Source: Parcubacteria group bacterium
GTDB taxonomy: Bacteria > Patescibacteriota > Minisyncoccia > Phycocordibacterales > Zambryskibacteraceae
Direction of reading: 5' to 3'
Length of the DNA stretch: 55,267 nt
Assembly: GCA_046597175.1 (NCBI GenBank)
Contig: JBKJKY010000003.1
Location: forward strand, 1-55,267
The notes beneath the pieces are model-generated. The model saw nothing but the letters and a program-made list of their open reading frames with translations, had not been told where the DNA came from and did not search any database. The position numbers were made by a program, and so were the translations under genes. Below, piece by piece: positions 11,262-55,267 of the stretch (the first letter of the stretch is position 1; each line of letters starts with the position of its first letter).

Positions 11262-12724
<1,463 letters not shown>

Positions 12725-19337: not shown

Positions 19338-19338
19338 T

Positions 19339-20748: not shown

Positions 20749-20803
20749 GGTGCATAGGGGTAATAATTCGATTTAGCCCACATTCTCAGGTATTATAAGG
20801 GGC

Positions 20804-23085: not shown

Positions 23086-23089
23086 TTAT

Positions 23090-24136: not shown

Positions 24137-24137
24137 T

Positions 24138-25884: not shown

Positions 25885-25885
25885 T

Positions 25886-27567: not shown

Positions 27568-27575
27568 CAACTTAT

Positions 27576-28259: not shown

Positions 28260-29367
28260 ACTGATCTACATTGCAGATATTCGGTTACCAACAGACAAGG
28301 CACATGGTATTCAGATAATGAAGATGTGTGAAGCGTTTGCTTCACAAGAACAAAAAGTCGAACTCTGGGTTCCAAGGAGGCACACTCCAATCACTGAGAG
28401 TCCTTTTTTGTATTACCAAGTAAAGCATAATTTTGAAATACAATACTTGAGATGCCTTGACCTCACTCGCTTTGGGAGGCTGGGATTTTTTTTCCAAACA
28501 AGCACGTTTGCACTCCATGCCTTACTCAGGTCCTTTTTTCAGAATTCTACTGTGTTCTTTACTCGCGATCCAAACCTCGCACTACTCCTGCGTTTTGCTC
28601 GTAAAGAAGTTACCTGGGAGTCCCATATGGGACAATTGAATATTGCAACAAAGCTTTTGATCAAAACGAAAGTAAAAATGGTGCATATCAGCCAAGGTTT
28701 GTTTGATGTATACAAAAAACATGGAGCACTTCCAAAGCGTATGATTGTTGCGTCAGATGCAGTTGATATTGATCAATTCCACATATCACTTACAAAAAAT
28801 GAAGCGAGAGAAAAAATTGGACTGAAAAAAGATCAACATATAGTTTTGTACACAGGTCATTTGTATTCATGGAAGGGAGCAGATGTTCTTGCGGAAGCAA
28901 CAAGGATTTTGCCGAGTACTATCCATACAGTATTTGTCGGTGGCACCGACCATGACATCCAGAATTTTAAACACAGATATGGAGCGGTTGAGAACATTTC
29001 TATTATCGGCAAGAAGCCCCATAGTGAAATGCCTCTGTATATGAGAGCCGCGGATGTACTGGTGATTCCAAATAGCGCGAAAGAAGATATATCAAGGCTC
29101 TATACATCTCCTATGAAGCTTTTTGAATACATGGCAAGTGGTACTCCAATCGTTGCGTCAAATCTTCCGTCACTTCGTGAAGTTGTAGGCGGAGGAACCA
29201 GTTTTTTGTTTGAGTCGGATGATGCGGTAAGCTTAGCTAAGGAAATAGAAACAGTATTTCAAAGCCCTGAAGTTGCTGAGCAAAAAGCGCAATTAGCGTT
29301 TGAGAAAGTCCAAGCGTATTCTTGGAATAATCGTGCGAAGCAGATACTTACTTTTTTAAATATGTAA
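28249..29367 (+). CDS. glycosyltransferase family 4
   Basis: Starts at MNSKLIYIADI. TSPMKLFEYMASGTPIVASNLPSLREVV. An 11-nt overlap with the upstream gene. Confidence 0.85.
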   Translation: MNSKLIYIADIRLPTDKAHGIQIMKMCEAFASQEQKVELWVPRRHTPITESPFLYYQVKHNFEIQYLRCLDLTRFGRLGFFFQTSTFALHALLRSFFQNSTVFFTRDPNLALLLRFARKEVTWESHMGQLNIATKLLIKTKVKMVHISQGLFDVYKKHGALPKRMIVASDAVDIDQFHISLTKNEAREKIGLKKDQHIVLYTGHLYSWKGADVLAEATRILPSTIHTVFVGGTDHDIQNFKHRYGAVENISIIGKKPHSEMPLYMRAADVLVIPNSAKEDISRLYTSPMKLFEYMASGTPIVASNLPSLREVVGGGTSFLFESDDAVSLAKEIETVFQSPEVAEQKAQLAFEKVQAYSWNNRAKQILTFLNM

Positions 29368-29368
29368 T

Positions 29369-30013
29369 ATGAATTTACGAGCAAAAATTGCGAGAAGAAA
29401 ACTTGATGAAAAAGTAGCGCCCCACGCAAGTGGAGCGAAGACTCTTGAGGTGGGAGCATATGGAAGGTCAAGTTATGGAAGATTTTTTCCCAACCGTATT
29501 GGACTTGATGTCCGGCCTGGGGTGGGGGTTGATATCGTGGGAAGTGTATACGAGCTTCCATTTGAAGATGAAAGTTTTGATATTGTTCTCTGTATGGTAG
29601 TCATGGAGCACCTTGAAGATCCGCAGTCTGCAATACGAGAAATGAAACGAGTATTAAAGCCTGGAGGAAAAATACTTGTCTCAGTTCCTTTTCTTTTTCC
29701 TATTCATGACTCACCGGGAGATTATTGGAGATTTACGAAATATGGTTTCAAAGTATTATTTAAAGATTGGAATATTGTTGAACTATCTGCTGAAACAAAT
29801 TTTAACGAGACCTTTGCAGTGCTACTTCAGCGAGTTGGGTATCAGTCAAAATTTCGCTTCAATGCAGTTGCGAAAATCTTGATATTCTCACTCGCATGGC
29901 TACTTACTAAGTTGCCGGTGTTACCAACACAAGTCTATGGAGATATCGGAAAAACTGTCGAAGAGCCAGAGGCTTTCGCTAGTTCATTTTTTCTTGTGGC
30001 GGAAAAGATTTAG
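29369..30013 (+). CDS. SAM-dependent methyltransferase (type 11)
   Basis: VMEHLEDPQSAIREMKRVLKPGGKILVSVP. TAATATG junction with the upstream gene. Confidence 0.8.
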   Translation: MNLRAKIARRKLDEKVAPHASGAKTLEVGAYGRSSYGRFFPNRIGLDVRPGVGVDIVGSVYELPFEDESFDIVLCMVVMEHLEDPQSAIREMKRVLKPGGKILVSVPFLFPIHDSPGDYWRFTKYGFKVLFKDWNIVELSAETNFNETFAVLLQRVGYQSKFRFNAVAKILIFSLAWLLTKLPVLPTQVYGDIGKTVEEPEAFASSFFLVAEKI

Positions 30014-31574
30014 ATGATAAGTGATCTGCAAGGCGAATTGCGAGTGCACATATGGTATAGGTGGGGTTTGCACAGCCACTTGTAGGGAATACAGATCCAC
30101 TACACACGTAGAGGTTATCCGCGCTGTGTACTCTCAGGTTGGTATTTACAACGGAGGTGCGCACGTCCGTACCCATAACCGTACCACCAAGGTGGTGACT
30201 GGCGTCAAAATTAATTGGCCATGGGTCTGTATGCTCTAAGTTACCCTCATATACGCCGAGTTTCGATCTCTCAACTTCTTTTCTTAAAAGTTCATGGAGA
30301 GTTATCATAGACTTTCTATCAAGCTCTGTAGTCGTCAGATTCACAACTGGGAAAGGGTTCCCGTATATATCGAGTTCGGTACTCAGTGTCATGCAGTTTT
30401 TCTCACTCGGCTCCATTTCCATAAAGTTCCGTATCCGTATTCGCGTAATAGCAATTTCTTTTTTATCTTGAATTCGGTGTAAAGCGTAGTGGGCCACTGC
30501 TCGTATATCATGGAGTACGTGAATGAGTGACTCAGACATGTTCGGTACATTTTTTGCTACAACATCGTTGTCGTCACCGGTCTCGTTGTAATCTTTCAAG
30601 TGCATGAGTCCTTTCTGTTTCAGCTTCCAGTAGTTCAGAATATTCTTTGCGCGTTTTGTAAGCGTAATAAGTGAGTACACCCCGACGCTGTCGGTCCATG
30701 GGAACATGGGTTCAAATCGTATGTAGCTGTTTAGGATTCCAAGTTCCTCCTGGAGGGGTTCTTGTATTCGCAGACCCGTATATCCGGCAAATCCTGATTC
30801 AAGATACCCAAATAGATAGGGGAGTTTCTCGATTGGTTTGTGGAGGGTTATCATCCCAAAATTATTTTTTGGATGATTCATAAGGTATTTCCCGACTTGG
30901 TTTGTGTTATTTCCGATATTTGCGTTGAGGAGGAGGCGAGTAGACTCAAGTCCGCCTGCGCAGATGATAAATATTTTTGCCCGAATCTCGCGTACGTTAT
31001 TGTTGATATCAGCAATTTTGACAGAGGTTATGTTCTTGTCAGTGTCTTGAAGAATGTGAGTAACAGTAGAATCGAGGAGTACGGTAATATTTTTTTTAGT
31101 TAATAAGTCGTCATATCTTTTGCCAAAATGTACTGCTGGATCAGAAGCAAGAAATATTTTTTCCTCAAGATTTTTAAGTTCGAGTACAAAATCTCCCTGT
31201 TTTTTTACCGCATCAAATTGTGACTCCTCAAAATTTTCATAGGGAGCGAATCCGTACTCGTCTAATCTCTTATAGTATGGTTCGACATCTTGAAGTGTAA
31301 TGGGCCACTTCTTAAAATCAACAGGATCAAGTGGTGCTGAGAGCCCCGCCCAGGTATGCGAGGTGCCACCCCAGACTCTTTCCCTCGACTTCTCTTTGAT
31401 GACAATCTCACCAACACTCAGAACCTTTTTCACACCACTAAAATCTTGTATAAGTTTTCTCGACCCACTTTCAATGAGGCAAATAGATTCGTGTGTTTTT
31501 GAGAGTTCGTGTGCAAGGGTGATTCCAGCAGGTCCAGTGCCTATAATGCAATATGTATACATTAATAAAATCAT
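29979..31574 (-). CDS. GMC-family FAD-dependent oxidoreductase
   Basis: N-terminal CIIGTGPAGITLAHELS (dinucleotide fold). C-terminal HHLGGTVMG...NLYVCSGSVFPTSGCANPT. The start is ambiguous (31610, 31574 or 31562). The 3' end overlaps the convergent methyltransferase gene by 35 nt. Confidence 0.8.
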   Translation of the reverse strand: MILLMYTYCIIGTGPAGITLAHELSKTHESICLIESGSRKLIQDFSGVKKVLSVGEIVIKEKSRERVWGGTSHTWAGLSAPLDPVDFKKWPITLQDVEPYYKRLDEYGFAPYENFEESQFDAVKKQGDFVLELKNLEEKIFLASDPAVHFGKRYDDLLTKKNITVLLDSTVTHILQDTDKNITSVKIADINNNVREIRAKIFIICAGGLESTRLLLNANIGNNTNQVGKYLMNHPKNNFGMITLHKPIEKLPYLFGYLESGFAGYTGLRIQEPLQEELGILNSYIRFEPMFPWTDSVGVYSLITLTKRAKNILNYWKLKQKGLMHLKDYNETGDDNDVVAKNVPNMSESLIHVLHDIRAVAHYALHRIQDKKEIAITRIRIRNFMEMEPSEKNCMTLSTELDIYGNPFPVVNLTTTELDRKSMITLHELLRKEVERSKLGVYEGNLEHTDPWPINFDASHHLGGTVMGTDVRTSVVNTNLRVHSADNLYVCSGSVFPTSGCANPTYTICALAIRLADHLSSKSFPPQEKMN

Positions 31575-31615
31575 AGCATCCAAGGGTCTTTTCGGGTAGA
31601 ATTGGCTCAAAATAT

Positions 31616-32671
31616 ATGAAAATCGGGTTTTTAGTTAAAACAGTGAACCCCAAAAATGGGGCTGGGAGATATGCTTCAGATATCATTGAGGGCTTACGAG
31701 TCAAAGGTCATACTGTGATTGTCCTTAAGGAAGAAGATGATGGATATGAAGGAGAGGTTGTGCTCAAAAGAGGGATACAGATTTTCTCTGGAGTTCGGGG
31801 GCTGGCAAAAAAACTCGAAGACTGCGATGTCATTCACGCCATTGATGGATACCCGTATGGCATCATTGGTTGGCTCATAAACAGAAAGTTACAAAAAAAG
31901 TTAGTGATTAGTGCACTCGGAACATATGCAGTCGCTCCGCTCTATAGATGGCAAACAGCGTTTATGCTAAAGCAAGCATATAAAAAGGCACATAGGGTTA
32001 TTGCAATTAGCACACTGACCAAAAATAAAATTTTAGAAAAAATAACACTGAGTAATATTGTAGTAGTAAATCCTGGTATCAAAATTGAGAAGCATTCTGA
32101 GAGTAGAGAGTTAGACGAGCAATACATACTAGGGGTCGGAGCTCTCAAAGAAAGAAAGGGGTATCACATTGCACTCTCTGCCTTTGCAGAAATTGCGCAA
32201 GAGTTTCCAGAGTTACGATACAAAATAGTAGCTGACCCTGACCGAGCATATAAAGTTATTTTGGAAGCATTTCTCAAAGACCGAGGGCTGTTTGATCGTG
32301 TAGATTTTTTGAGCTTCATTCCTGAGGAGTCGCTCGCTGATTTATATGAAAAGGCTTCAATCTTTGTATTAACTCCAATTAATACCACAGACAATCATTT
32401 TGAAGGATTTGGTATAGTGTATCTTGAGGCAGCTTCCTATGGCTTGCCAGTCATTGGAACTCTCGGGTCTGGGGGGGAGGATGCGATACAAGACGGAGTA
32501 AATGGAATATTAGTTCAGCAAGGTGATGTGAAAGAAACAGCTGAGGCAATGAGGAAAATTCTTTTAGATGTAGGTGTAAGAAATGCTATGATAGAAAAAA
32601 GTTTTGGGTGGGCACAATGCAACACCGTAGAGATGGAGGTAAATGCCGTATTAAAAGTGTATCAATCATAA
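31616..32671 (+). CDS. glycosyltransferase family 4
   Basis: 351 aa. NHFEGFGIVYLEAASYGLPVIGTLGSGGEDAIQDGVNGILV. Confidence 0.85.
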   Translation: MKIGFLVKTVNPKNGAGRYASDIIEGLRVKGHTVIVLKEEDDGYEGEVVLKRGIQIFSGVRGLAKKLEDCDVIHAIDGYPYGIIGWLINRKLQKKLVISALGTYAVAPLYRWQTAFMLKQAYKKAHRVIAISTLTKNKILEKITLSNIVVVNPGIKIEKHSESRELDEQYILGVGALKERKGYHIALSAFAEIAQEFPELRYKIVADPDRAYKVILEAFLKDRGLFDRVDFLSFIPEESLADLYEKASIFVLTPINTTDNHFEGFGIVYLEAASYGLPVIGTLGSGGEDAIQDGVNGILVQQGDVKETAEAMRKILLDVGVRNAMIEKSFGWAQCNTVEMEVNAVLKVYQS

Positions 32672-32673
32672 TT

Positions 32674-33321
32674 ATGTATATTTTTCAGCCAGACAGATAC
32701 ATTTTAGATTTGCAGATAAAAGAAGCGAGTAAATTTATTCGCGGTAACGTATTAGATGTTGGTGCTGGGGAGGTCAATCGATATAGTAAATATTTTACCT
32801 ACGACAAATATGTAAGGATGGATTTAAACCATGGTGAAAAGGTTGATTTGATCGGAAGTGCAGATAATATCCCCATGCCGGATGGAAGTTTTGATTCAGT
32901 AATCTGCACGCAAGTTTTTGAACACTTAAAGGATCCAGATAAGAGTGCGAAAGAGATATATCGCGTACTAAAACCTGGCGGAACTCTTTTGGTTACAGTG
33001 CCACAAATGAATGAACTTCATGAAGAACCTCATGATTATTGGAGGTATACAAAATTTGGTTTAGAAGAATTGTTCGGGGCAGTGGGTTTTAAGACGATAC
33101 ATATTGACCAGAGGGGTGGATTTTTCTCAACGATGGCACAGATGGCTATTCGGTACATGATCGACCGTTTTGCCTTGTATAAGAAACCAAGCGTTATGGG
33201 GAAAATCATCGCTCTTTTCTGTAAACTTATTGGTAAAGTTTCTATGAAAATTGATGCCTGGGATAGGAGTGTCGCAAACAGAAAACATACTATCGGATGG
33301 TGCTTCGTTTTTAGGAAATAA
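32674..33321 (+). CDS. SAM-dependent methyltransferase (type 11)
   Basis: Starts at MYIFQPD. VLDVGAGE and TQVFEHLKDPDKSAKEIYRVLKPGGTLLVTVP. Confidence 0.8.
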   Translation: MYIFQPDRYILDLQIKEASKFIRGNVLDVGAGEVNRYSKYFTYDKYVRMDLNHGEKVDLIGSADNIPMPDGSFDSVICTQVFEHLKDPDKSAKEIYRVLKPGGTLLVTVPQMNELHEEPHDYWRYTKFGLEELFGAVGFKTIHIDQRGGFFSTMAQMAIRYMIDRFALYKKPSVMGKIIALFCKLIGKVSMKIDAWDRSVANRKHTIGWCFVFRK

Positions 33322-33329
33322 ACATAACC

Positions 33330-34568
33330 ATGAAGATTGTAATCCTTTCTGATGATTTCCCCCCGAAAAGTTTAGGTGGGGCAGGAATAGTGGCTTATAT
33401 GCAGGCCAAAGAACTCTCACGCAGAGGTCATTCGGTTTCAGTTGTTACTACTTTCCAAGATAAAGGAGTCGACGAGAAGATGGATGTTGAGGGCCTGACT
33501 GTTTATAGAATTCGGACAAACTACAGTATGTTTTTTAGGGCCTATATAGGGCTCTATAATCCAACCGTTGTTTTCAAAGTGAAAAAAATTTTAGGGGATA
33601 TATGTCCTGATGTAGTGCATGCCCATAATGTTCATCAGTTCCTGTCGTACAAAGTTTTGGACTATGCAAAGCGATATGCAAAAAAAGTATACATCACTTT
33701 TCATGACGGCATGTCGGTGCACTATACAAAGCTATATCCGAAAGTGGGCCAGGCGCAAGGGAGAGCTTTTGACTATCAGATTTCATGGCTTTCTCAATTA
33801 CGAAATTTTAGGCTCCAGTACAATCCATTTCGAAATACTGTTATCAAACACTATTTGAAGAATGCAGACCATTTATTTTCAGTGAGCCACGCGCTCAAGC
33901 AGGCATTAGAGCAAAATGGGTTAAAAAATATTGAAGTGTTGCACAATGGAATCGATTTGAAAGATTTTGTATACGATGAAGATGCGGTTGCTCACTTTAA
34001 AGCTAAGAATCATTTAGTTAATAAAAAAGTACTATTTTTTTCAGGACGCATCAGTAAAGCGAAGGGTGTCGATGTGTGCCTTCGGTTACTCAAAGAACTT
34101 TCTTTGACCATTCCCGAAGTGAGACTACTCATTGCGGGAAAGAAAAATACATATGTTGAGAAAATTTTACAAAGAGAAGACACGCAAGGACTTGCCTCAA
34201 AAGTTATTTTTGCTGGATGGCTCGGCAGAGAGGATGTAATTTCAGCATATTTTGCATCAGATTTGATTCCTGTCCTTTCGACCTATCTTGATCCATTTCC
34301 GACTACTAATCTCGAAGCGATGGCTGCAAAAAAGCCAGTTCTCGGCACGTGTTTCGGAGGCACCCCAGAGATAGTGGTGGATGAACAAACTGGCTACATC
34401 GTTGACCCGAACAATTTTGAAGATGTCCTTAAAATAGCTTTACGAGTATTGCGTGATGAAGGTCTAGCAAAAAAGCTCGGAGAGGCTGGGTATGAAAGAG
34501 TTGTGAAAAACTTTCCTTTGAGATCACAAGTTGATTGTCTAGAAAGAATATATAACTCAAGTCAATAG
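33330..34568 (+). CDS. glycosyltransferase family 4
   Basis: 412 aa. MKIVILSDDFPPKSLGGAGIV at the N-terminus and DPFPTTNLEAMAAKKPVLGTCFGGTPEIVVDEQTGYIV. Confidence 0.85.
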   Translation: MKIVILSDDFPPKSLGGAGIVAYMQAKELSRRGHSVSVVTTFQDKGVDEKMDVEGLTVYRIRTNYSMFFRAYIGLYNPTVVFKVKKILGDICPDVVHAHNVHQFLSYKVLDYAKRYAKKVYITFHDGMSVHYTKLYPKVGQAQGRAFDYQISWLSQLRNFRLQYNPFRNTVIKHYLKNADHLFSVSHALKQALEQNGLKNIEVLHNGIDLKDFVYDEDAVAHFKAKNHLVNKKVLFFSGRISKAKGVDVCLRLLKELSLTIPEVRLLIAGKKNTYVEKILQREDTQGLASKVIFAGWLGREDVISAYFASDLIPVLSTYLDPFPTTNLEAMAAKKPVLGTCFGGTPEIVVDEQTGYIVDPNNFEDVLKIALRVLRDEGLAKKLGEAGYERVVKNFPLRSQVDCLERIYNSSQ

Positions 34569-34740
34569 TCAAACCAAAAAAAATATCGAGATTGCCAAAC
34601 TATCGTTTGCTGTACACAAATCATAAAATTTACTAAGCTAACTTGGGTGGATGTATGGCTTTGTGGCGAAAAGGTTTTGCTTTGCAAATTACATGCAGGA
34701 AGTAATATATTATTTTCTTAAGCTGTGTTAGAGTCATTTT

Positions 34741-35454
34741 ATGAAAGACGAAACAATTAACTTTTATGATAAAGAAAGTGGTATCTATACTGCCAAAAGA
34801 TACCCGAATCATGTAGAGAGTTATACTCAATACATTTTCCGCACACGACTAAATATCCTCCTCTCTTTTTTAAAGAAAAGTAAGCAGGTGATACCTATAA
34901 ACTCCTCTGTTTTTGAGATTGGTTGCGCTGATGGGGTTGTGTTTAAGTCTCTTGAGGGGAGCTTTCCTCATCGATTCTCAAAACTAGTTGGTGTCGACAT
35001 TTCACCAGGAATGATTGCTGAAGCTACGAAGCAAAATACGAACAAAAATACTTCGTTCACTTTGAGAGATGCTGCGCCTGCTGACCAGTACGACATAGTT
35101 CTTGAGATTGGTGTCCATGTATACAATCTTGATGCAGAGCTTGCCTATGTTTCGCAATTTCTGAAACCTAACGGCTACTTTGTATTCTCTGCTGCGGGGG
35201 GAAAGTCTTTGTACAAGAAAATAAAAATGAGAGATAAAGAATATTCCAAAGACTACCTTGTTTATTCGTCACTTGAGAAAGTGTTACAAAGATATTTTAC
35301 TATAGAAGACTCTGCTGTGTACGGGCTTTTTGTACCGAAACTTTGGCAAGTTGGAGCACTGGGAAGGTTTTTACAGCCAATCTTTGATGGAGTATTCCAG
35401 TTTATTCCAGAGTTATTCCACGAAAAGATATATCTTTTAAGAAAGTTAGACTAA
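34741..35454 (+). CDS. class I SAM-dependent methyltransferase
   Basis: VFEIGCADGV (motif I). TGtTAGAGT lies 6 nt upstream of the ATG. Confidence 0.75.
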   Translation: MKDETINFYDKESGIYTAKRYPNHVESYTQYIFRTRLNILLSFLKKSKQVIPINSSVFEIGCADGVVFKSLEGSFPHRFSKLVGVDISPGMIAEATKQNTNKNTSFTLRDAAPADQYDIVLEIGVHVYNLDAELAYVSQFLKPNGYFVFSAAGGKSLYKKIKMRDKEYSKDYLVYSSLEKVLQRYFTIEDSAVYGLFVPKLWQVGALGRFLQPIFDGVFQFIPELFHEKIYLLRKLD

Positions 35455-36720
35455 TACCGTTTCGGAATTTTTCTCTTTCACAAAGTACCACCAGTGCGCA
35501 ATGAGCATGATGAGCCAAGAAACTCCGTTCGCAACCACGGCACCTTCTAAACCGAATTTATAAATACATATAAAAGTTACAATCAGTGTAGAAATATTTC
35601 CGATGAGGTTTAGCTCGTACATCTTCCTCGTGGCTTTTTTGAGTTGAAAATATATTGCAAACAGAGAGATACCAGGAATGGTAATCATCCCGAGCATGTA
35701 GATTTCCGAGTAGAATACTGCTTCAAGATATTTTGGAAAAAGAATAGCAAAGATGTGTTGCGCAGTAAGAATATAGAACAAAATTGCGAGTGCAGTGAGT
35801 CCTGTTAACTGGAAAAACTTTTTTGTAATACTCACCCTCAACTCTTTCTCAGAGAGCTCAGCATATTTCGGAAGTGCTAGTCCAAAGATATTTTTGAGCA
35901 CCCCTTTGAGTTGATCCGGGATTGCTTGGGCAAAAGCATAAATTGCGAGCTCGAGTGCACCAAGATAGTGGAACACTAAAATCTTATCGAACTGATTCGC
36001 TACGGTCCCCAGGAGTCCCATGATACTTAAATGTTTCCCATAAGGTATAAGCGTGTGGTCCTGCTCAGTATTTATAGAAAAACTGTTGAGTGTTCGTCTG
36101 TATGCAAAGATGGTAGAAAGTGTGTTTACAGTAAAGTAGGTCAGCACCATGAGTGTAATATTTTTTGTCAGTACCGCAACAATAATGATGCCTACAGTAT
36201 TCAAGAGTTGAGTTATCAGTGAATAGAGGGTAACCTTCTTAAAATCCTTTTTCCCCACTAGATAGTTGCCATAGAGCGTGAAGGCTTGGCTGAGGGGGAG
36301 GGCTACTCCGGCAATGAGCATCGAAAAGCCGAGTGTCGGGTTTCCTTGTAAAAAGTAGTAAGTCGAAGCGCATAGAGCAGCGAGCGTAATGAGAGATCCC
36401 CATCTGAGTGTCGATCGTACTGCGGTTTTCAAGATTCCTTCAAAACCCTGCGAGACTCCTTGAGCCACTACTGACCCCATACCTGTTAGTGAGAGTGCTC
36501 CTAAAATGCTTGTGGTGGCAATGATAAATTTATAATTACCATATATATCTTTTGAGATAAGGTTTGCAAAAAATAGTGAACTCGCAAACGCGATACCTGC
36601 AGAGAGTACTTGCCCAATACCGAGCCAGCTACCACCCTTTGTGAGGTATACCATATCGGTTTTGGTGTACTGTTCGCTCCATCTAATTGCTCGGTATGCT
36701 TTTTGTCGTACGGTTTCCAT
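35446..36720 (-). CDS. Wzx-like polysaccharide flippase (MOP superfamily)
   Basis: 424 aa with about 12 TM segments, in a glycan cluster. A 9-nt convergent overlap with the preceding gene. Confidence 0.7.
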   Translation of the reverse strand: METVRQKAYRAIRWSEQYTKTDMVYLTKGGSWLGIGQVLSAGIAFASSLFFANLISKDIYGNYKFIIATTSILGALSLTGMGSVVAQGVSQGFEGILKTAVRSTLRWGSLITLAALCASTYYFLQGNPTLGFSMLIAGVALPLSQAFTLYGNYLVGKKDFKKVTLYSLITQLLNTVGIIIVAVLTKNITLMVLTYFTVNTLSTIFAYRRTLNSFSINTEQDHTLIPYGKHLSIMGLLGTVANQFDKILVFHYLGALELAIYAFAQAIPDQLKGVLKNIFGLALPKYAELSEKELRVSITKKFFQLTGLTALAILFYILTAQHIFAILFPKYLEAVFYSEIYMLGMITIPGISLFAIYFQLKKATRKMYELNLIGNISTLIVTFICIYKFGLEGAVVANGVSWLIMLIAHWWYFVKEKNSETVLV

Positions 36721-37652: not shown

Positions 37653-39839
37653 ATGAATACAAATTTAAAATGGGGAATTTTGGGAGGATTGTTTTTGATC
37701 CCCGTTATCCCTTTCATCATTTCTGGAAGCATCCTATTTCCTTTTATTACGGGCAAGAACTTCCTCTTTCGAGTTCTGGTTGAGATTGTATTTGCACTTT
37801 GGCTTATTCTTATTGTCAGGGATTCTGAGTACCGACCGAAGTTTTCTTGGCTTCTTGGATCGTTTGCGATCTTTACTCTCGTGATGGGGATTGCGGATGT
37901 ATTTGCGCAAAATCCATCAAAAGCACTGTGGAGTAACTTTGAGCGAATGGAAGGCTTCATAGCTCTCATTCATTTCTTCCTCTATTTTCTTGTTGCCTCA
38001 TCAGTATTTCACACCATGAAACAGTGGGTGCGGTATTTGTATGTCTGGATGGCCTCAAGTGTCATCATGTGTGTATACGGACTTCTACAGCTTGCAGGGA
38101 AGATAACTATCAATCAGGGAGGTGTGCGTGTTGACGGAACACTCGGGAATGCCAACTATTTGGCAGTGTTCCTCATGTTTAATATTTTTTTCGGACTCTT
38201 CCTATTTCTACGCTCTCAGAATAAGAAAACCGTTGCATGGATTGTGTTTCCTGCTGTTTTGCTCCAATCGATTATTCTCTACTATACCGCGACGAGAGGT
38301 TCTGTTCTTGGTTTAATCGGTGGTCTTTTTGTAGCGGTTTTACTCACTGCACTTTTTGAAAAGCAAAATCCAAAACTTCGAAAAGTGGCCATTGGTGCTG
38401 TCGTCGCGCTAGTATTGTTTGTTGGTGGCTTTGTTGCACTTCGAAACACCTCTTTTGTTACAAGTAGTCCGGTGCTTTCACGCTTCTCTTCACTTTCACT
38501 CTCTGAAATCAAAACTCAAGGAAGATTCTATATTTGGCCGATGGCAATTGAAGGGTTTAAGGAGCGTCCGATTCTTGGTTGGGGCCAGGAGGGATTCAGC
38601 TATGTGTTCAACGAGCACTACAATCCAAAGATGTACGCGCAAGAGCAGTGGTTTGATCGCGCTCACAACATGTTTCTTGATTGGCTTGTCGCTGGAGGAC
38701 TCCTCGGTTTACTTAGTTTTCTATCAATTCTATTTTTTGCATTCTGGTATGTATGGAAAGATGCAAATGCTACGTTCTCATTTGCAGAAAAGAGTCTCAT
38801 TACTGGGCTCCTGTCCGCTTACATATTTCAAGGACTCTTTGTGTTCGACAACCTAATCGGATACATCCTCTTCTTCTCACTCATGGCATTTATCCACGCT
38901 ATGCACGGAGGCAGTCACATGCCAATTCCGAAAGCCCTAGAAAAGGAGGGACCGCGAAATACTTTTGCTGGAGTTGTCGTGGTAGCTCTCTGTGCTGGTC
39001 TGTATTTCACAGTTTGGATTCCGGTAGAGGCTGGGCAGTCGCTTATCGACAGTCTCCGAGCAATCCAGTCTGCCGACCCTGTCTCAGCACTTTCTCAGTT
39101 TAAAAAAGCACTGAGTTACAATACATTTGGAAATCCCGAAATCAGAGAACAACTCATAAATGCTCAGGGTGCGTTTTTGCAGGACAAAGTTCCAGAAAAA
39201 ATAAGAGGCGAGTTCGCAGATCTTGTGCGCACAGAGTACACCAAACAATTTGAAAACGCTCCGAAAGACGCTCGCTACTATCTATTTTACGGGACATTCC
39301 TTCGTTCTGTTGGACTTGGAGACATGGCAATAGAAAATTTCAAAAAAGCTCAAGAGCTCTCGCCTCTGAAGCAAACTATTATGATTGAGATTGGCCTCAC
39401 ATACATGCAAGGGAAGGATTATGTGCACGCTCTCGAATATCTCAAAAAAGCATCAGACTTAGATCCAACGTATGTACAAGCGAAGGTGTACTATGCAATT
39501 GCAGCGCTCTATGCAAACAACCTCGACCTTGCAAATACTTTGTTCAACTCCATTCCAGTTGATCAATTAGTCCATGATGAAAAAGTTGTTCAAGCGTTTG
39601 CACAAACTGGGAGATATCAAGAGTTAATAAAAATATTTACCCGCAGGATTACCGAGGGTGCTGATACATTCGAAAATTCCACAAACCTCGCTGTGTCATA
39701 TCTTGAGTCCGGAGATAGGGTAAATTCTGTTGCAGTGCTTCAGAGATTCTTAGATAAGGATGAAACACAAAAAAACATACAGCAGAAAGCTCAACTCGAG
39801 TATTTCATAAAGGAGATAAAAGCAGGGAGGAACCCGTAA
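37653..39839 (+). CDS. O-antigen ligase/polymerase-like (Wzy_C-type) membrane protein fused to C-terminal TPR repeats
   Basis: 728 aa with about 12 TM segments. YYTATRGSVLGLIGG loop region. The C-terminal ~270 aa carry TPR-like repeats (AIENFKKAQELSP..., ALEYLKKASDLDP...). Confidence 0.7.
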   Translation: MNTNLKWGILGGLFLIPVIPFIISGSILFPFITGKNFLFRVLVEIVFALWLILIVRDSEYRPKFSWLLGSFAIFTLVMGIADVFAQNPSKALWSNFERMEGFIALIHFFLYFLVASSVFHTMKQWVRYLYVWMASSVIMCVYGLLQLAGKITINQGGVRVDGTLGNANYLAVFLMFNIFFGLFLFLRSQNKKTVAWIVFPAVLLQSIILYYTATRGSVLGLIGGLFVAVLLTALFEKQNPKLRKVAIGAVVALVLFVGGFVALRNTSFVTSSPVLSRFSSLSLSEIKTQGRFYIWPMAIEGFKERPILGWGQEGFSYVFNEHYNPKMYAQEQWFDRAHNMFLDWLVAGGLLGLLSFLSILFFAFWYVWKDANATFSFAEKSLITGLLSAYIFQGLFVFDNLIGYILFFSLMAFIHAMHGGSHMPIPKALEKEGPRNTFAGVVVVALCAGLYFTVWIPVEAGQSLIDSLRAIQSADPVSALSQFKKALSYNTFGNPEIREQLINAQGAFLQDKVPEKIRGEFADLVRTEYTKQFENAPKDARYYLFYGTFLRSVGLGDMAIENFKKAQELSPLKQTIMIEIGLTYMQGKDYVHALEYLKKASDLDPTYVQAKVYYAIAALYANNLDLANTLFNSIPVDQLVHDEKVVQAFAQTGRYQELIKIFTRRITEGADTFENSTNLAVSYLESGDRVNSVAVLQRFLDKDETQKNIQQKAQLEYFIKEIKAGRNP

Positions 39840-49305: not shown

Positions 49306-49569
49306 CTACTCTTCATCTTCTAAATGCTTTACTACTAATTTTTTCATTCTACTTCGGGCGTTACTACCAGATTGACCACCATTTTCTATATCCTCTATGA
49401 TTTTAAGGAGGTTTTCAGCTTTGTATACACGATAATTGTTCATTGGATGTCTCTGTGCAGGGAACTTGCCATTCTTATCCCAATTTCGTAGAGTAAGAGG
49501 AGAAACGCCGAGTACGTACGCCGCTTCTTTAATTGTCACATATTTTTTGTATTCCATATTATTAGCCAT
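49306..49569 (-). CDS. MerR/excisionase-type helix-turn-helix DNA-binding protein
   Basis: 87 aa. YVTIKEAAYVLGVSPLTLRNWDKNGKFPAQRHPMNNYRVY. Confidence 0.75.
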   Translation of the reverse strand: MANNMEYKKYVTIKEAAYVLGVSPLTLRNWDKNGKFPAQRHPMNNYRVYKAENLLKIIEDIENGGQSGSNARSRMKKLVVKHLEDEE

Positions 49570-49887: not shown

Positions 49888-49893
49888 TATAAT
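49888..49893 (+). promoter_or_regulatory. -10 hexamer TATAAT, 7 nt upstream of the ATG at 49901
   Basis: tcTATAATgtatgtaATGaat. Confidence 0.5.
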
Positions 49894-49900
49894 GTATGTA

Positions 49901-51142
49901 ATGAATTCTGATCTTTATTTCGACGGAAAAAAGTATATCTCGTCTAGCCGAGCTGCAAAAATAAGTGGCTATGTTAATGACTATATTGGTCAACTCTGCC
50001 GAGATGGAAAGCTCGACTGTCGAATGATCGGACGCTCTTGGTATGTATCTTTCGATTCCCTTATTGCTCATAAAAATTCAAACGGAAGTGGTTCAAAAAA
50101 TAAGTCTCAAAGATTAGTTAAAACAGAGGTAACTCCTACGGTAAATAAAGAAGAGGCTTTACTGGTCAATTTTGAGCCTCAGATTTCTGTGGTCCCCGCT
50201 CCCCCTGTTGTTGCGGAAGTGGCACTGCCTCAATTACTTGAAATGAAGAAAGAGGTCAGAGTTGTGGACTCTGCTTCAACTGGAGCTCTTCTCGAAAAGG
50301 TAAGCCCTGAATCTGAGGATCTTCCACTCTTTGCTTTTGACCTCAAGGCTCCACTTCTTGAAGAAAAAACTTTGAGTGATATTTCACTCATTTCGCCTGA
50401 GATAGAGGTGACACCCGAAGTTGTTCATAGGATTCCGATTAAGGCTGTGGGAGAAGTCGTACAAGTTTCCGAAAAGCAAGTTGATGAAATTAAAAATTCT
50501 GCACCCACCTCAGAACCAATTGTTTCTGAGTATTTTGCTGATGCGAAATTTATTACACCTATCCTCTCTACGGTTACTACGGTTACCATGCCTTCTACTC
50601 ATCACCAAGTGTTTGGAAAAAGATTTCCTACAGTTGCGCTCGGTGTGGTGGCGGTACTTATATCATTCCTTGTATTTAATCTCATGACAGAAACGGGTGT
50701 TAGTAATCGTGAGACTGTTGCGGTAGAGCGCCCTGCCCCCGCTGCATATCAGGGTGTGGATCTCACCGCAAGCGTTGTAAGCGGAGCTTGGAACGTTCTT
50801 GATACTGTCTCAGAGAAAATATATTTGACAGTAAATGATTGGACAGGTGGAGCGCAGAAAACAATTCTTGCATTCGTAAAGAGCAGAGGTTCACCGCCGA
50901 AATTATATACGAACGATCCTCCAACTCTTGTCGCTGATGAGAGGCCAAGTGAAGGAATGATCGTAGTGCCAGTTACCGCGAAGACTGATAAGGAAGCGAC
51001 AATTGCAAAAATTAAAAGTACGTTCTCTGATGAAGTTACCGTGGAGCCAGGAGCAGATGGGTCAGATGGTGTCATAAAGCCAGTGTTTAAAAGAAGTAAG
51101 GGCGACGACTATCTCTATGTGCTCGTGCCGATTAAAAACTAA
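49901..51142 (+). CDS. membrane-tethered protein: N-terminal excisionase/MerR-like HTH, one TM segment, extracytoplasmic C-terminal domain
   Basis: YISSSRAAKISGYVNDYIGQLCRDGKLDCRMIGRSWYVSFDSL (HTH). TM segment FPTVALGVVAVLISFLVFNLM about 240 aa in. About 150 aa lie outside the membrane. The start could be 49892 or 49901. Confidence 0.6.
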   Translation: MNSDLYFDGKKYISSSRAAKISGYVNDYIGQLCRDGKLDCRMIGRSWYVSFDSLIAHKNSNGSGSKNKSQRLVKTEVTPTVNKEEALLVNFEPQISVVPAPPVVAEVALPQLLEMKKEVRVVDSASTGALLEKVSPESEDLPLFAFDLKAPLLEEKTLSDISLISPEIEVTPEVVHRIPIKAVGEVVQVSEKQVDEIKNSAPTSEPIVSEYFADAKFITPILSTVTTVTMPSTHHQVFGKRFPTVALGVVAVLISFLVFNLMTETGVSNRETVAVERPAPAAYQGVDLTASVVSGAWNVLDTVSEKIYLTVNDWTGGAQKTILAFVKSRGSPPKLYTNDPPTLVADERPSEGMIVVPVTAKTDKEATIAKIKSTFSDEVTVEPGADGSDGVIKPVFKRSKGDDYLYVLVPIKN

Positions 51143-51248: not shown

Positions 51249-52199
51249 ATGAAAAAAATACTCATCACCCTCATTCTTGTACTCATAAGCTTCGCACGTG
51301 TGACGACACTCGAAGCTTTGACTATTGAGAAACATGAAGGTGTGCCAGTAGAAAAAAACTTTGTTGTTGGTCCTGCAAAAATTGAAAGCGAAGTAAACGC
51401 AGGCGAAGTGAAAACAGTAAATCTTGTGATTGATAACAAGACCGGTCGAACACAATCATTTACCGTTCATTTCGAAGATTTTACTTCTGGAGCAACTGAG
51501 GGCCAGGTGGTTCAACTTCTTGGATCAGGCCAGAGCGAGACAAGTTTGAAAAAATTCTTGAGTGTTACCGAGAATCAATTTGTGCTTGAGCACGGTGATC
51601 GAGCGATACTGCCGGTAACTATCTCAATTCCCGTTGGAGAAAAAAGTGGTGGCAAGTTCGGCTCAGTTATAGTCAGTGCTGTTGCAAAGAGAAATGCTAT
51701 CACTACAGAGGGAGATGCCAACACCGGTGCAGTGGTGATTGGAAATGTTGCAGCACTTCTTTTTGTAACAGTTCCAGGAGACGTGAAGTATGATGGGTCA
51801 CTTCTTTCAGTAAAAACGAAAAATGGTGCATCACTATTTTTTGAAAACTCTGTGCCACTGCGATTTCAATTTCAGAATTCTGGGAATGTGAGTATAAACC
51901 CCTACGGACTTGTTGTGATTAAAAATATGTTTGGTCATGAGGTCCTAAGGACTGTACTCGATCCCTGGTTTGTTCTTCCTGGTTCTGTGCGAACTCGCGA
52001 CCTCCTCGCCGAGGTTCCTCAAGGGTTTGGATACTATCGTGCTGTTGTGCAGATGAACCGTGGGTATGAAAATATTGTTGATGAAAGAGTAGTTTCATTT
52101 GTTCTTATTCCAAAAGTTGCGGGCGTGGGGATTCTTGTGGTGATGTTCTTTTTTGGGTTTGTTGTGGTAAAGAAAGTGCGAGCTAAAAAGTATGTCTAA
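51249..52199 (+). CDS. cell-surface protein with CscA-like (DUF916/DUF3324-like) architecture
   Basis: Signal peptide MKKILITLILVLISF. Two beta-sandwich-sized segments (NFVVGPAKIESEVNAGEVKTVNLVIDN...). C-terminal TM segment plus a KKVRAKKY stop-transfer. Confidence 0.5.
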   Translation: MKKILITLILVLISFARVTTLEALTIEKHEGVPVEKNFVVGPAKIESEVNAGEVKTVNLVIDNKTGRTQSFTVHFEDFTSGATEGQVVQLLGSGQSETSLKKFLSVTENQFVLEHGDRAILPVTISIPVGEKSGGKFGSVIVSAVAKRNAITTEGDANTGAVVIGNVAALLFVTVPGDVKYDGSLLSVKTKNGASLFFENSVPLRFQFQNSGNVSINPYGLVVIKNMFGHEVLRTVLDPWFVLPGSVRTRDLLAEVPQGFGYYRAVVQMNRGYENIVDERVVSFVLIPKVAGVGILVVMFFFGFVVVKKVRAKKYV

Positions 52200-52200
52200 T

Positions 52201-52944
52201 ATGAAGTCAGTCCTGATCATTGTGATCTTAATAAGTTTTGTATTCGCACAGCCTGCGCTCGCTACGGTGATGTCGAGTTCAAATTATCGATTGCAGAGTG
52301 ACTCAGTTAACTTTGGTGGAGGAAATTCATCATCAACAAGTTACGTGAGTGAAAGCACCTTCGGTGAGATTGCAACAGGAAATTCTGGAAGTACAAACTT
52401 CAACATTAAAGCTGGTTACCAGCAGATGCAGGAAGTGTACTTAGCAATCAGCACGGTAGCTGATGTGACCCTCACGCCCTCTATTAATGGGAACTCAGGT
52501 GGTATTGCAAATGGTTCAACTCTTGTGACCGTGCTTACCGATAATCCTGCAGGGTACGAGCTCTATGTAAGTGCGAGCTCTTCGCCCGCTCTTATCTCCG
52601 GGGTTAATTCATTTGCTGACTACACGCCTGTAGGGGTTGTGCCAGACTTCACCTTTACTGTCGCTTCAACAACTGCTGAGTTCGGATTTTCTCCAGAGGG
52701 AACGGCAATTGTAAGTAATTACAAGGATAATGGAACAGTGTGTGGAAGTGGTGTTCTCGATACGGTAGATAGTTGCTGGAGCAATCTGACGACATCAAAT
52801 GTTCTTATCGCAAAAGAGGTTGTGCCAAACTTTCCGGCAGGCACAGGAACAACACTGAAGTTTAGAGTAGAGTCAGGAATTGCAAATATTCAGCCTGCAG
52901 GAGCGTACAGTGCAACAAGTACGGTAACTGCCGTAGCGCTCTAA
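52201..52944 (+). CDS. secreted Ser/Thr/Gly/Asn-rich beta-type protein, candidate fibre/surface subunit
   Basis: Signal peptide with an ALA-TV cleavage site. SSNYRLQSDSVNFGGG...STNFNIKAGY repeats. C-terminal QPAGAYSATSTVTAVAL strand. ATG at 52201 sits in a TAATATG junction (the track start is 52192). Confidence 0.5.
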   Translation: MKSVLIIVILISFVFAQPALATVMSSSNYRLQSDSVNFGGGNSSSTSYVSESTFGEIATGNSGSTNFNIKAGYQQMQEVYLAISTVADVTLTPSINGNSGGIANGSTLVTVLTDNPAGYELYVSASSSPALISGVNSFADYTPVGVVPDFTFTVASTTAEFGFSPEGTAIVSNYKDNGTVCGSGVLDTVDSCWSNLTTSNVLIAKEVVPNFPAGTGTTLKFRVESGIANIQPAGAYSATSTVTAVAL

Positions 52945-52950
52945 TATTCC

Positions 52951-54525
52951 ATGTTTCGAAATACCGTCACAGTCAAAAGTATCGCTCTCTCTCTTGTGTT
53001 CCTTTGCTCTTTCACAAATCTCATCGCAGCAACAGATCAGTTCAACATTAACCTTTCGGTTACTGCTGGCGCTGACACAATTGCACCATCTGTGCCAACT
53101 GCACTTTCTGCAACTGCAGTCTCAGCGTCACAAATTGATCTTGTGTGGAGTGCATCGACAGACAATGTGGCGGTAACTGGGTATCGTGTCTATCGTGATA
53201 GTGCTTTGGTAGGGACTTCGGTCAGTACTACATATTCTGATACTGGCCTCAGCGCTTCCACACTCTATACGTATACAGTTTCAGCAATTGACGCAGCACT
53301 CAATGAATCAGTTCAGTCTGCAAGTTCTACTGCAACAACGCTACCCGCTCCTGTCAGTACAAATTCCGGAGGAGGTGGGGGAAAAAGCCAGACTTCAGTG
53401 CCACAGATTTACAATTTAGTGGTAACCCCGAATCAAAGTGGCGCAGTCATATCGTGGAATACGTCGGTGCCAGTGCAAAGCACACTCTCTTGGGGGCTTA
53501 CCTCGAATCTTGAGAAAGGAAATGTATCTGAAACATTTTTCACTACTTTTCACAGTGTTACGCTTCCAAATTTACTCTCTGGAACAAATTATCAATTTCT
53601 TATCCAGGTAGTGAGTGGATACGGAGGGTATAACGAACTTCGGAGTCAATTTGCAACGGTAGGAATTCCGCAAGGAAATGTAAATGCGCGAAATTTTACT
53701 GCCACCGCTGGAGTAGATCGGATTCTCCTTAAGTGGAAAAATCCAACAGTGAATTTTGCTGAAGAGAGGATTGTCCGAAGTGAATCATTTTATCCAGCAG
53801 ATCCAAGTGATGGAGAAGTTGTGTATGAAGGAGGAGGTGAAGTGAGTGAAGATGCCAGCGTAACGATTGGCACACGGTATTACTACACACTCTTTACCAA
53901 AGATACTGATGGAAATTACTCGTCTGGATTACTCGCTACCGCACGGATCCCTGTTCCAGGTGAGCCAGTAGGGGCGAACCCCGACACTCTCGGGAATCTA
54001 CCCGATGCACCAAACGTAGATCCGATCATTCGTGCACTAACATTCCTCGATTTTGATTTCATCCAGCATGGAAAAAAGATACAGGCCGATGGGAGTGGCG
54101 CGGGGGTTTCGATCGATGGACTTGAAAATCTCACTGTGTCACTTGATTACAAGAAGGTTCCAGAGGTGCTAAAAAGCATAGCAATCACACTCACTCACCC
54201 GACTGATCCTTCGAAAACATTTTCCTTCCTCCTTCGGATAAACAAAGAAAAGACTGCATACACCGCAACAATTGGAGCACTCGGGGATTCGGGAACATAC
54301 GGGGTTCATATCGCAATTGTTGATTACAAAAATAGAGGACTAAAAAATATTTTTGGAAATCTCCTTGCAAGTGCTGAAAATGCTATCGATTCACGAAACA
54401 CCTTCTTCCTTCTCCTCCTGCAGACTCTTGAGAATAATCTTTTCACAATCGTCCTTATTCTCATCCTTCTCATAATCCTCGGCAGCGTAGTCAAAAAAAC
54501 ATTTGAATTGAAACGTAAAAAATAG
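52951..54525 (+). CDS. fibronectin type III domain surface protein with a C-terminal membrane anchor
   Basis: Signal peptide. APSVPTALSATAVSASQIDLVWSASTDNVAVTGYRVYRD...YTYTVSAID (canonical FN3) plus two further FN3-like modules. C-terminal TM segment followed by KKTFELKRKK. Confidence 0.75.
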   Translation: MFRNTVTVKSIALSLVFLCSFTNLIAATDQFNINLSVTAGADTIAPSVPTALSATAVSASQIDLVWSASTDNVAVTGYRVYRDSALVGTSVSTTYSDTGLSASTLYTYTVSAIDAALNESVQSASSTATTLPAPVSTNSGGGGGKSQTSVPQIYNLVVTPNQSGAVISWNTSVPVQSTLSWGLTSNLEKGNVSETFFTTFHSVTLPNLLSGTNYQFLIQVVSGYGGYNELRSQFATVGIPQGNVNARNFTATAGVDRILLKWKNPTVNFAEERIVRSESFYPADPSDGEVVYEGGGEVSEDASVTIGTRYYYTLFTKDTDGNYSSGLLATARIPVPGEPVGANPDTLGNLPDAPNVDPIIRALTFLDFDFIQHGKKIQADGSGAGVSIDGLENLTVSLDYKKVPEVLKSIAITLTHPTDPSKTFSFLLRINKEKTAYTATIGALGDSGTYGVHIAIVDYKNRGLKNIFGNLLASAENAIDSRNTFFLLLLQTLENNLFTIVLILILLIILGSVVKKTFELKRKK

Positions 54526-54532
54526 TTCTCTC

Positions 54533-55267
54533 ATGTGGAAATTAATTGAAAAAATAATAGCATCAACACTTATCCTTATCGTATTCTTTACGATTCCAGG
54601 ATTATTTCCTGCTCTTGAAGTTTTTTCATTTGCTCCAAAGATTGCAGAGGCAGCTTTTAATAAACAAATAAATTATCAAGGAAAGCTTACAACGCCCCTT
54701 AACGTTGCAGCTGCAGATGGTGTCTATCATATGCGCTTTGCGCTGTATACATCAGCAAGCGGTGGGGTCCCTGTTTGGCAAGAAGATCGTAGTACCGCTC
54801 CTGGCGACCGCGTGACGCTTTCAAATGGACTTTTCAGTGTTATGCTCGGAAGTTCTACTGTGCTCACATCAGTAAATTTCGCTCAGACACTGTACCTTGG
54901 GGTTGAGGTGGGAGGATCAACTGGATCACCTACCTGGGACGGAGAAATGACTCCACGCAAAGTTCTCGGCGCGGTTCCCACTGCGTTTGTGGCAGAAAAT
55001 GTTGAAGGAGGTACTATTGAGAATGTTACAATCGGTGCAACTACTCCTGGTACAGCGCGATTTACAAACTCGACAACAACGAACGCAACTTCCACCAATC
55101 TCTTTTCAACGGATGCAAATATCGGTTCTGCAAGTGTTGGAAGTCTAACCACAACCAACGCCACCACCACCTCTTTCGCCATCTCAAACACCGCCTCATC
55201 ACTCCTCAAGACAAACAGTAATGGTTCAGTTCTCGCAGCAATCGCAGGAACAGACTACGAAAACGCT
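54533..55267 (+). CDS. large surface/adhesin-like protein, 3' end outside the window
   Basis: Not in the ORF track because it has no stop in the window. I translated it by hand: ATG at 54533, open for 245 codons to the window end. N-terminal anchor, then INYQGKLT..DGVYHMRFALYTS..GGVPVWQE..NGLFSVMLG..LYLGVEVGG, then T/N/S-rich repeats. Confidence 0.6.
   Translation, partial: MWKLIEKIIASTLILIVFFTIPGLFPALEVFSFAPKIAEAAFNKQINYQGKLTTPLNVAAADGVYHMRFALYTSASGGVPVWQEDRSTAPGDRVTLSNGLFSVMLGSSTVLTSVNFAQTLYLGVEVGGSTGSPTWDGEMTPRKVLGAVPTAFVAENVEGGTIENVTIGATTPGTARFTNSTTTNATSTNLFSTDANIGSASVGSLTTTNATTTSFAISNTASSLLKTNSNGSVLAAIAGTDYENA

Follow-up and report, generated by a model that had tools for sequence, protein, structure and literature searches.

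Most bacteria of the Candidate Phyla Radiation (CPR, or Patescibacteria) live as obligate episymbionts, and little is known about the way in which they attach to their hosts. Pili termed Pam have been described in one of them, Ca. Mycosynbacter amalyticus (Troman et al. 2026, bioRxiv 10.64898/2026.03.03.709456). The DNA analysed here is contig JBKJKY010000003.1 of a Parcubacteria group bacterium (assembly GCA_046597175.1), which at its full length of 55,267 nucleotides is referred to below as the window. It ends in four consecutive, co-oriented genes, termed G1 to G4, which all encode export signals and constitute a candidate surface-fibre operon. As initially annotated, they are preceded by a pair of genes for helix-turn-helix (HTH) proteins. 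The six genes are arranged as follows.

49306 to 49569, minus strand: MerR-family HTH protein of 87 residues (Pfam MerR, 2.4e-10), divergent to the operon.

49892 to 51142, plus strand: H, 416 residues, with a weak match to HTH_17 (E 0.009) in an N-terminal HTH-like region, one transmembrane segment and an extracytoplasmic C-terminal domain.

51249 to 52199, plus strand: G1, 316 residues, membrane-anchored, chaperone-like protein with two immunoglobulin-like (Ig) domains of the WxLIP and PapD/FimC fold.

52201 to 52944, plus strand: G2, 247 residues, putative PamT-like tip subunit with signal peptide, triple SxNYxL cap and pilin-like Ig domain.

52951 to 54525, plus strand: G3, 524 residues, putative stalk and terminator-anchor with signal peptide, candidate donor strand, FN3 modules and transmembrane helix.

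54533 to 55267, plus strand: G4, first 245 residues of a predicted giant tail-fibre-like adhesin, truncated where the contig stops.

The order of the four genes and their export signals were read directly from the open reading frames (ORFs) and from their signal and transmembrane segments, and the tight junctions reported in the initial annotation are exact in the sequence. G1 and G2 are joined as TAA-T-ATG, while gaps of 6 and 7 nt separate G2 from G3 and G3 from G4, respectively. An alternative in-frame ATG at 52192 leads to a 250-residue G2; the 247-residue form is the one used in relatives and in the public gene call. No terminator-like site was found on the plus strand between G1 and G4. 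A promoter scan returned 17 sites compared with 11.8±4.1 in shuffled sequence, and since this is no excess over the shuffled level, no promoter is claimed. G1, G2 and G3 begin with N-terminal hydrophobic signal peptides with AxA-type sites and G4 with a hydrophobic N-terminal segment, and G1 and G3 both terminate in a C-terminal hydrophobic helix followed by a K/R tail. As the window is the whole public contig, G4 cannot be completed from this record; no longer record was found, the sole other G3-bearing record being a shorter, 6.7-kb Logan contig.

Relatives of G2 are carried by at least 330 species-representative genomes, and the best 80 of the related loci, one per species genome, were scanned with hidden Markov models (HMMs) built for each gene; all counts out of 80 given below refer to these loci. 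Locus types are described with H for the HTH-transmembrane protein, C for the G1 chaperone, T for the G2 tip, R for the G3 anchor, F for the G4 fibre and S for a shaft paralogue. G1 lies directly upstream of G2 in 80 of 80 loci and G3 follows G2 in ~75, the remainder being truncated. Thus, the co-conservation of the genes in relatives, which the initial annotation had set as a test of its own proposal, is borne out decisively. A protein with the N-terminal domain of G4 follows G3 in 46 loci. S, an extra pilin-like paralogue, is present upstream of G1 in 46/80 loci and absent despite sufficient room in 30/80; the window locus, like its closest relatives, has no S and shows the arrangement H-C-T-R-F. 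This gene arrangement is far beyond chance. The genes are, in addition, fused in some species. G1 and G2 form one ORF in seven of the 80 (L027, L030, L035, L039, L058, L062 and L086), in the order G1 domains, transmembrane helix, short basic loop, G2 signal-like segment, AxA and SxNY, while G3 and G4 are contained in one ORF in four (L054, L056, L057 and L062). Both kinds of fusion keep the transmembrane helix and, after it, the signal-like segment of the next protein. WxLIP_PGBD and a G2 module are also united in a single protein (P0158). The giant adhesin partner appears exchangeable: in L091 a Laminin_G_3 protein of more than 3000 residues is encoded upstream (positions 1-9039) of an S-C-T-R cluster, with no tail-fibre-like gene downstream.

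The AlphaFold model of G1, with a predicted local distance difference test score (pLDDT) of 88, comprises a signal helix, two β-sandwiches extending from residues 25 to 175 and 183 to 286, and a helix from residue 289 to 315. Structural similarity search of the PDB with Foldseek placed the WxLIP of E. faecium on top (PDB codes 9i1y and 9i25, about 3e-12), 9i25 being the structure of WxLIP bound to a long WxL protein, followed by the chaperones of chaperone-usher systems CfaA, CsuC, Caf1M, FimC, YadV, EcpB and CupB2. At the sequence level, the G1 family profile matches EfmWxLIP1 (E of 7.8e-5) and Pfam WxLIP_PGBD (DUF916, PF06030) is matched by 24 of 32 family members (best 2.7e-6), the G1 of the window itself scoring 12.8 bits, which is below the gathering score of 27.3. 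G1 is a remote homologue of WxLIP and not a Pfam-level member of that family; its initial likening to the CscA (DUF916/DUF3324) proteins is upheld by both profile and fold. A profile search with the G1 alignment added just five further proteins. When the family was compared with the transmembrane-anchored chaperones of L090, L092 and L093, three loci that bridge to the Pam system, the two aligned over their full length (hhalign 99.5%, E of 4.5e-23 over 280 columns), the bridging sequence having been taken out of the G1 family beforehand. The pairwise identity between G1 and the L092 chaperone is 24% over 251 residues. The best-conserved segment of G1, RIAxLxFVTVPG, has L170, F172 and G177 as invariant residues. 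It forms the final strand of domain 1, with a disordered loop before it, and this loop and strand may resemble the F1-G1 loop and G1 donor strand of chaperone-usher chaperones.

G2 displays an N-terminal region of three SxNY/F...G repeats (residues ~24-76), which are the SxNYxL repeats first noticed in this protein. This region ends in AGYQQM and constitutes the most conserved part of the family. It is followed by an Ig domain (residues 77-247, pLDDT >85) in which two cysteines and the C-terminal strand, GxYxATxTVTAxAL, are conserved. The family is large, with at least 1349 matches at 90% clustering; 1725 representative clusters match at E ≤ 1e-3 and 260 at E ≤ 1e-30. The best 150 matches of the representative search, as well as the best 80 loci of the genome scan, all fall inside the Paceibacteria family. 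The sole meaningful match of G2 in NCBIfam was CPR_pilus_PamT (NF058579; E of 5e-12 over residues 3-128), a model that is matched by all 38 family members tested, the best of them at 5e-13, far below its cut-off. Searching PDB sequences with the G2 family profile gave nothing meaningful. In Foldseek searches against PDB structures, almost all matches were chaperone-usher pilins (PapE, FimA, CfaB, CsuA/B, CS17 and the PapG pilin domain), the PapG pilin domain with a probability of 0.99 and a TMt of 0.57. The initial annotation had compared the C-terminal strand with those of both WxL and Csu-type subunits. The Csu-type part of this comparison is reasonable, because the confidently modelled domain matches, weakly, only chaperone-usher pilins including CsuA/B. 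The WxL part did not stand: G2 was considered as a WxL protein and rejected, there being no WxL Pfam match and no dual Trp-x-Leu motif. The G2 alignment holds a single conserved Trp, in C-W, no WxL chain occurs among the top 50 Foldseek matches of G2, and G4 has no WxL Pfam match either.

The G2 module is also found at the C-terminus of larger proteins, where it follows Laminin_G_3 and four FN3 domains (P0245), DUF2341 and Laminin_G_3 (P0156) or the body of a 2187-residue repeat protein (P0187). P0155 is a further fusion protein of this kind, and in P0163 a Laminin_G_3 domain is inserted within the SxNY region of the module itself. Tip adhesins such as FimH and PapG are laid out in this way, with a lectin domain followed by a pilin domain, and this suggests an exposed, not a buried, SxNY region. 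G2 would, on these sequence features, be a tip subunit of the PamT-like type.

G3 had been annotated as a three-module FN3 protein with a C-terminal anchor, a description with which its domains agree: two stretches match Pfam fn3 (1.8e-11), a third is FN3-like, and an Ig-like stretch and a transmembrane anchor complete the protein. Other Pfam matches comprise Pur_ac_phosph_N and FixH-like stretches, and comparison with PDB sequences revealed generic bacterial FN3 domains only, the first FN3 being an ordinary bacterial one. G3 contains no LPXTG motif and ends in the transmembrane helix and basic tail. The start of the mature protein connects it with S, a protein of ~225 residues encoded in L007, L009 and other related loci. 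Paralogous to the G2 Ig domain (38% identity over 174 residues, E of 7e-21), S has no SxNY repeats, and mature S starts directly after the signal peptide with EDQF-T-[VI]-T-Q-T-I (EDQFTVTQTI). The same motif is the start of mature G3 in every locus examined; the G3 of the window reads TDQFNINLSVTA, and its mature N-terminus, DQFNINLSVTA, is a candidate donor strand. G2 would thus provide an acceptor domain only, S a strand plus a domain and G3 a strand plus an anchor, a division that corresponds to the tip, shaft and terminator subunits of donor-strand pili. In G3, position F+4 is Q in 13 of 17 loci with S, as it is in S, and L, A or V in 19 of 20 loci without S. This pattern fits the expectation that the G3 strand must match the groove of the subunit that G3 would terminate.

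The view of G4 as a tail-fibre-like adhesin running off the window is confirmed by its full-length orthologues. Two of these, from L007 and L009 and with lengths of 1177 and 2122 residues in one order or the other, contain Pfam Peptidase_S74 above the gathering score, a domain that serves as trimerisation chaperone in MAT fibres as well as in the tail fibres and spikes of phages (PMC10769870). Complete copies range from ~200 to ~2500 residues, and the L009 protein includes several near-identical internal repeats. The contig ends inside G4 in 34 of the 46 loci, which is consistent with internal repeats or strain variability and suggests that G4 is a repetitive or hypervariable adhesin. G4 resembles the MAT fibres of Bdellovibrio and the S74 tail fibres and spikes of phages in having a β-rich N-terminal domain of ~130 residues right after the signal sequence and, in the orthologues, a long repetitive shaft with Peptidase_S74 as intramolecular chaperone. 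It differs from them in that the match of its N-terminus to NCBIfam Bdello_MAT_N is sub-threshold (4e-4, 20.2 bits against a cut-off of 60) and in that it shares an operon with chaperone, pilin and anchor genes; its own C-terminus lies outside the window. A full-length G4 orthologue found nothing when compared with PDB sequences. In L009, a 533-residue secreted Gly_rich_2 protein (positions 18712-20313) is encoded directly downstream of the full-length G4 orthologue.

We consider that the four genes probably make up the conserved part of an operon of Paceibacteria-type CPR bacteria for a surface fibre that is assembled with a chaperone but no usher. The operon would be a reduced relative of the Pam system, more distantly related to the WxL/WxLIP clusters of Firmicutes. 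All products would be exported by Sec. G1, tethered by its C-terminal helix, would cap the incomplete Ig domain of G2 with a strand of its own, in the manner of PapD/FimC or WxLIP, and G3, anchored by its C-terminal helix, would then displace G1 by inserting its DQFNINLSVTA strand into G2. The predicted product is a membrane-anchored stalk of ~3 FN3 modules and one Ig-like module with the G2 tip on top. Where S is present, it would polymerise between tip and anchor to give a true pilus; as the operon of the window is without S, its product is probably short. G4 would act as a giant, probably trimeric and variable host-binding element, and it may, more speculatively, dock on the pedestal formed by G2 and G3. 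The gene structure, homologies, folds, synteny and gene fusions are direct observations, from which we infer the strand exchange, this order of assembly, the docking of G4 and the role in host attachment.

Several observations weigh against this interpretation. No shaft paralogue is encoded in the window, since the G2-family HMM finds G2 alone in a six-frame translation of the 55 kb, and no two-domain pilin of the PamA/PamB/PamE type is present in the operon, so that a filament may not form in this organism. The structure predictions, of G1 and G2, are of monomers, so that insertion of strands from G1 and from G3 into G2 is a putative step. In the model of G2, the conserved N-terminal residues 19-76 have pLDDT <50, and the Foldseek matches of this protein in the PDB are weak (E ~1e-2, TM-scores of 0.3-0.57). 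Its match to PamT reaches 45.7 bits against a cut-off of 240 and covers the N-terminal half only, while G3 gives no match to NCBIfam PamR (NF058578) at E ≤ 1. The pattern at position F+4 of G3 may just follow phylogeny and shared ancestry. G4 is absent from 16 loci that offer enough room, which indicates that it is not obligatory.

The Pam pili are the closest described counterpart. Their major pilins, PamA and PamB, form donor-strand-assembled filaments that were solved by cryo-EM; PamA, PamB and PamE share a nine-stranded N-terminal domain, a donor strand in the linker and a truncated C-terminal Ig domain. PamC and PamD are PapD/FimC-like chaperones, each with a C-terminal transmembrane helix, PamT is a tip pilin, modelled as the tip, and PamR is an FN3 tether of 32.8 kDa that has a transmembrane helix at the C-terminus and an additional N-terminal strand. 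No usher belongs to the system, a tail-fibre-like gene is co-localised with it, and a chaperone-only assembly model, which is also the one put forward here, was proposed on the basis of the cryo-EM filaments (10.64898/2026.03.03.709456). Comparison with Pam was made through the NCBIfam models of PamT and PamR and through the bridging loci L090, L092 and L093. L092 encodes a protein that matches PamR (2.5e-64, 217 bits), a 344-residue SxNY-repeat protein that matches PamT (7.8e-8), a pilin of ~350 residues, two transmembrane-anchored chaperone-like proteins, as well as a tail-fibre-like protein with a G4-type N-terminal domain. It is through the chaperones of this locus that G1, which combines the PapD/FimC fold with a transmembrane helix as PamC and PamD do, was related to them.

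Both systems are specific to CPR and comprise Sec-exported proteins, a two-Ig-domain chaperone with C-terminal transmembrane helix, a ~25-kDa PamT-like tip with an N-terminal SxNY region, an FN3 anchor with C-terminal transmembrane helix and N-terminal strand, and an adjacent tail-fibre-like gene, in the absence of usher, sortase and ATPase; for G3 and PamR the likeness is one of architecture only. The two also differ. There is one chaperone here and two in Pam. The two-domain PamA/B/E pilins have no equivalent, relatives using the single-domain S of ~225 residues and the present operon none. G3, with 524 residues, ~3 FN3 modules and one Ig-like module, is set against a PamR of 32.8 kDa and does not match its model, G2 remains far below the PamT cut-off, and the MerR and HTH-transmembrane genes are conserved upstream. 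The genomes are of Paceibacteria type; the Pam preprint stresses Saccharimonadia and Microgenomatia and mentions neither Paceibacteria nor WxL/DUF916 (10.64898/2026.03.03.709456). The initial annotation had proposed a novel appendage or attachment operon. The appendage part of this proposal is supported, whereas the system is not of a wholly new kind, because the related Pam system was described in 2026 and NCBIfam models for PamT and PamR exist. What is new here is the Paceibacteria lineage, the single chaperone, the single-domain subunits, the shaftless operon, the longer anchor that is not PamR and the conserved HTH genes.

The operon shares with chaperone-usher pili (Pap/Fim, CFA/I, Csu and Caf1) the fold of the chaperone, a pilin-like subunit with conserved C-terminal strand and a putatively incomplete Ig fold, the proposed division into tip (acceptor only), shaft (donor and acceptor) and terminator (donor only), and the occurrence of lectin and pilin domain fusions at the tip. 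In contrast to those pili, it has no outer membrane or usher, its chaperone and terminator are membrane-anchored, and there is no detectable sequence similarity. In none of the 80 related loci do the conserved genes enclose an usher-like gene. In the window, 20 other ORFs were scanned in addition to the operon genes; in agreement with the initial annotation they include no sortase, usher or pilus ATPase, nor were LPXTG pilins, a prepilin signal or an assembly ATPase found.

The other relationship of G1 is with the WxL/Csc clusters of Firmicutes, in which CscA is the WxLIP, with the architecture DUF916-DUF3324-transmembrane helix (Hassan et al. 2023, PMC10599100). WxLIP is predicted to place a strand of the DUF916 domain in the WxL partner and thereby to bind and stabilise it (PMC10599100). 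G1 shares this layout of a signal peptide and a pair of Ig-like domains that precede a transmembrane helix, the gene sets run parallel, in that a small subunit is accompanied by a large protein bearing an adhesin and by a protein with an anchor, and in both cases the helper is proposed to be a strand inserter. This raises the question of whether G1 stays permanently bound to G2 in a static complex that displays G2 at the membrane, with G3 and G4 acting independently and being merely co-regulated. Such an arrangement is unlikely, although the closest solved relative of G1, by sequence as well as by fold, is WxLIP, including the WxLIP-WxL complex 9i25, the strand insertion proposed for WxLIP serves binding and stabilisation (PMC10599100), the small G2 proteins and large G2-module fusions mirror the small and large WxL proteins, and the operon lacks a shaft subunit. 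The conserved mature N-terminal strand common to G3 and S is hard to explain without strand donation, and the related Pam proteins make real filaments in M. amalyticus (10.64898/2026.03.03.709456). G2, moreover, has neither a WxL domain nor the dual W-x-L motif. The operon differs from WxL clusters also in that the fold of G2 looks like that of chaperone-usher pilins, in that no LPXTG protein (CscD) or sortase is present, and in that the exchange or polymerisation implied by the donor-strand motif of G3 and S has no described counterpart in them.

G2 might alternatively be the polymerising pilin, its SxNYxL region serving as an extended donor in a homopolymeric filament ended by G3. This is improbable. 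The 50 N-terminal residues are indeed the most conserved of the protein yet unmodelled in the monomer, as is usual for donor strands, the size of the family is very large, and no other gene of the operon than G2 is pilin-like. However, large fusions at its N-terminus and a Laminin_G_3 domain in its interior are tolerated by the SxNY region, which fits an exposed tip and not a buried strand, its sequence is unlike the EDQF donor motif of S and G3, and the homologous PamT was modelled as a tip (10.64898/2026.03.03.709456). It is hardly credible that the genes are a tail-fibre module of phage or mobile origin, or encode secreted proteins that are unrelated and adjacent by accident, for although G4 is tail-fibre-like with Peptidase_S74 in its orthologues and assemblies break inside it, suggesting variability, no phage genes flank the cluster, which lies beside gatB, obg and secA in many species, its synteny extends to 80/80 species genomes, in-frame gene fusions occur, and Foldseek searches with G2 against viral structures gave no meaningful match. 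A prophage origin was rejected on the synteny with housekeeping genes.

Considering the four genes as a chaperone-assisted, usher-less fibre operon, a Pam-like system of chaperone and donor strand appears widespread in Paceibacteria, judging from the species genomes and protein clusters counted above, in a simpler and modular form in which a single chaperone would serve a tip, an anchor and, in some species, a shaft, next to a giant fibre that varies. Both its sequence and its fold link the CPR chaperone to WxL-interacting proteins from Gram-positive bacteria, which hints at a common assembly principle in monoderms. The cell-surface partner of the conserved N-terminal domain of MAT fibres was stated to be unknown (PMC10769870), and the operon link and occasional fusion to MAT-like adhesins suggest a candidate for it. 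Host specificity is likely to be determined by elements such as the hypervariable G4 and the lectin domains fused to the tip module, which are obvious candidates. A bolder and doubtful extension, which we put forward tentatively, is that the G2-G3 pedestal is the surface docking element for MAT-type trimeric tail-fibre adhesins, the SxNYxL cap, conserved across classes, binding the equally conserved N-terminal domain of G4, and that Pam pili, the Paceibacteria clusters and the Firmicute WxL/WxLIP clusters belong together in a single ancient superfamily, that of donor-strand surface systems of monoderms which work with a chaperone only.

Upstream of the operon, the MerR gene occupies the same position in the contigs of the relatives L002, L004, L006, L007, L008 and L009, and its product is a possible regulator of the operon. 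In most of the 80 loci, the HMM of the H family finds a member immediately upstream of the cluster, of which H is the conserved first gene; H is possibly a membrane-tethered regulator. The remainder of the window encodes SecA, SecDF, glycan genes and other housekeeping genes. Many GT1 and GT4 glycosyltransferases and a Bac_transf sugar transferase are encoded in a glycan island at 18195-36720 and 37653-39839, as well as at 2056-3204 and 4507-5853, together with a Polysacc_synt flippase-like gene, and a 728-residue protein that combines Wzy_C, of the O-antigen-ligase family, with TPR. Wzy_C enzymes include pilin O-oligosaccharyltransferases. PamA, for its part, has an O-linked sugar (10.64898/2026.03.03.709456). 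On these two grounds, the products of the glycan island might plausibly decorate the fibre.

The organisms named for the related loci comprise Zambryski-, Lloyd-, Nomura-, Taylor- and Kaiserbacteria or Paceibacterota/Parcubacteria. Many loci from TPA_asm metagenome-assembled genomes (L010-L089) are labelled 'uncultured Candidatus Saccharibacteria', a label that could not be verified, and equally similar loci are named Zambryskibacteria or Paceibacterota; L037, labelled 'Candidatus Nanoarchaeia archaeon', is probably a mis-binned CPR contig. As the taxonomic labels look unreliable, the lineage is treated, with this caveat, as Paceibacteria-type CPR. The window itself contains a complete bacterial 16S rRNA gene (11261-12724), with no 23S detected by Rfam on the contig, and one tRNA (13826-13898); the 16S gene would allow phylogenetic placement of the organism. 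A 678-residue VirD4/TrwB-like coupling protein of type IV secretion systems (T4SS-DNA_transf, TrwB_AAD_bind) is encoded at 16114-18150, and at the far end of the contig a VWA-domain protein (47-814) represents another possible adhesion-related gene.

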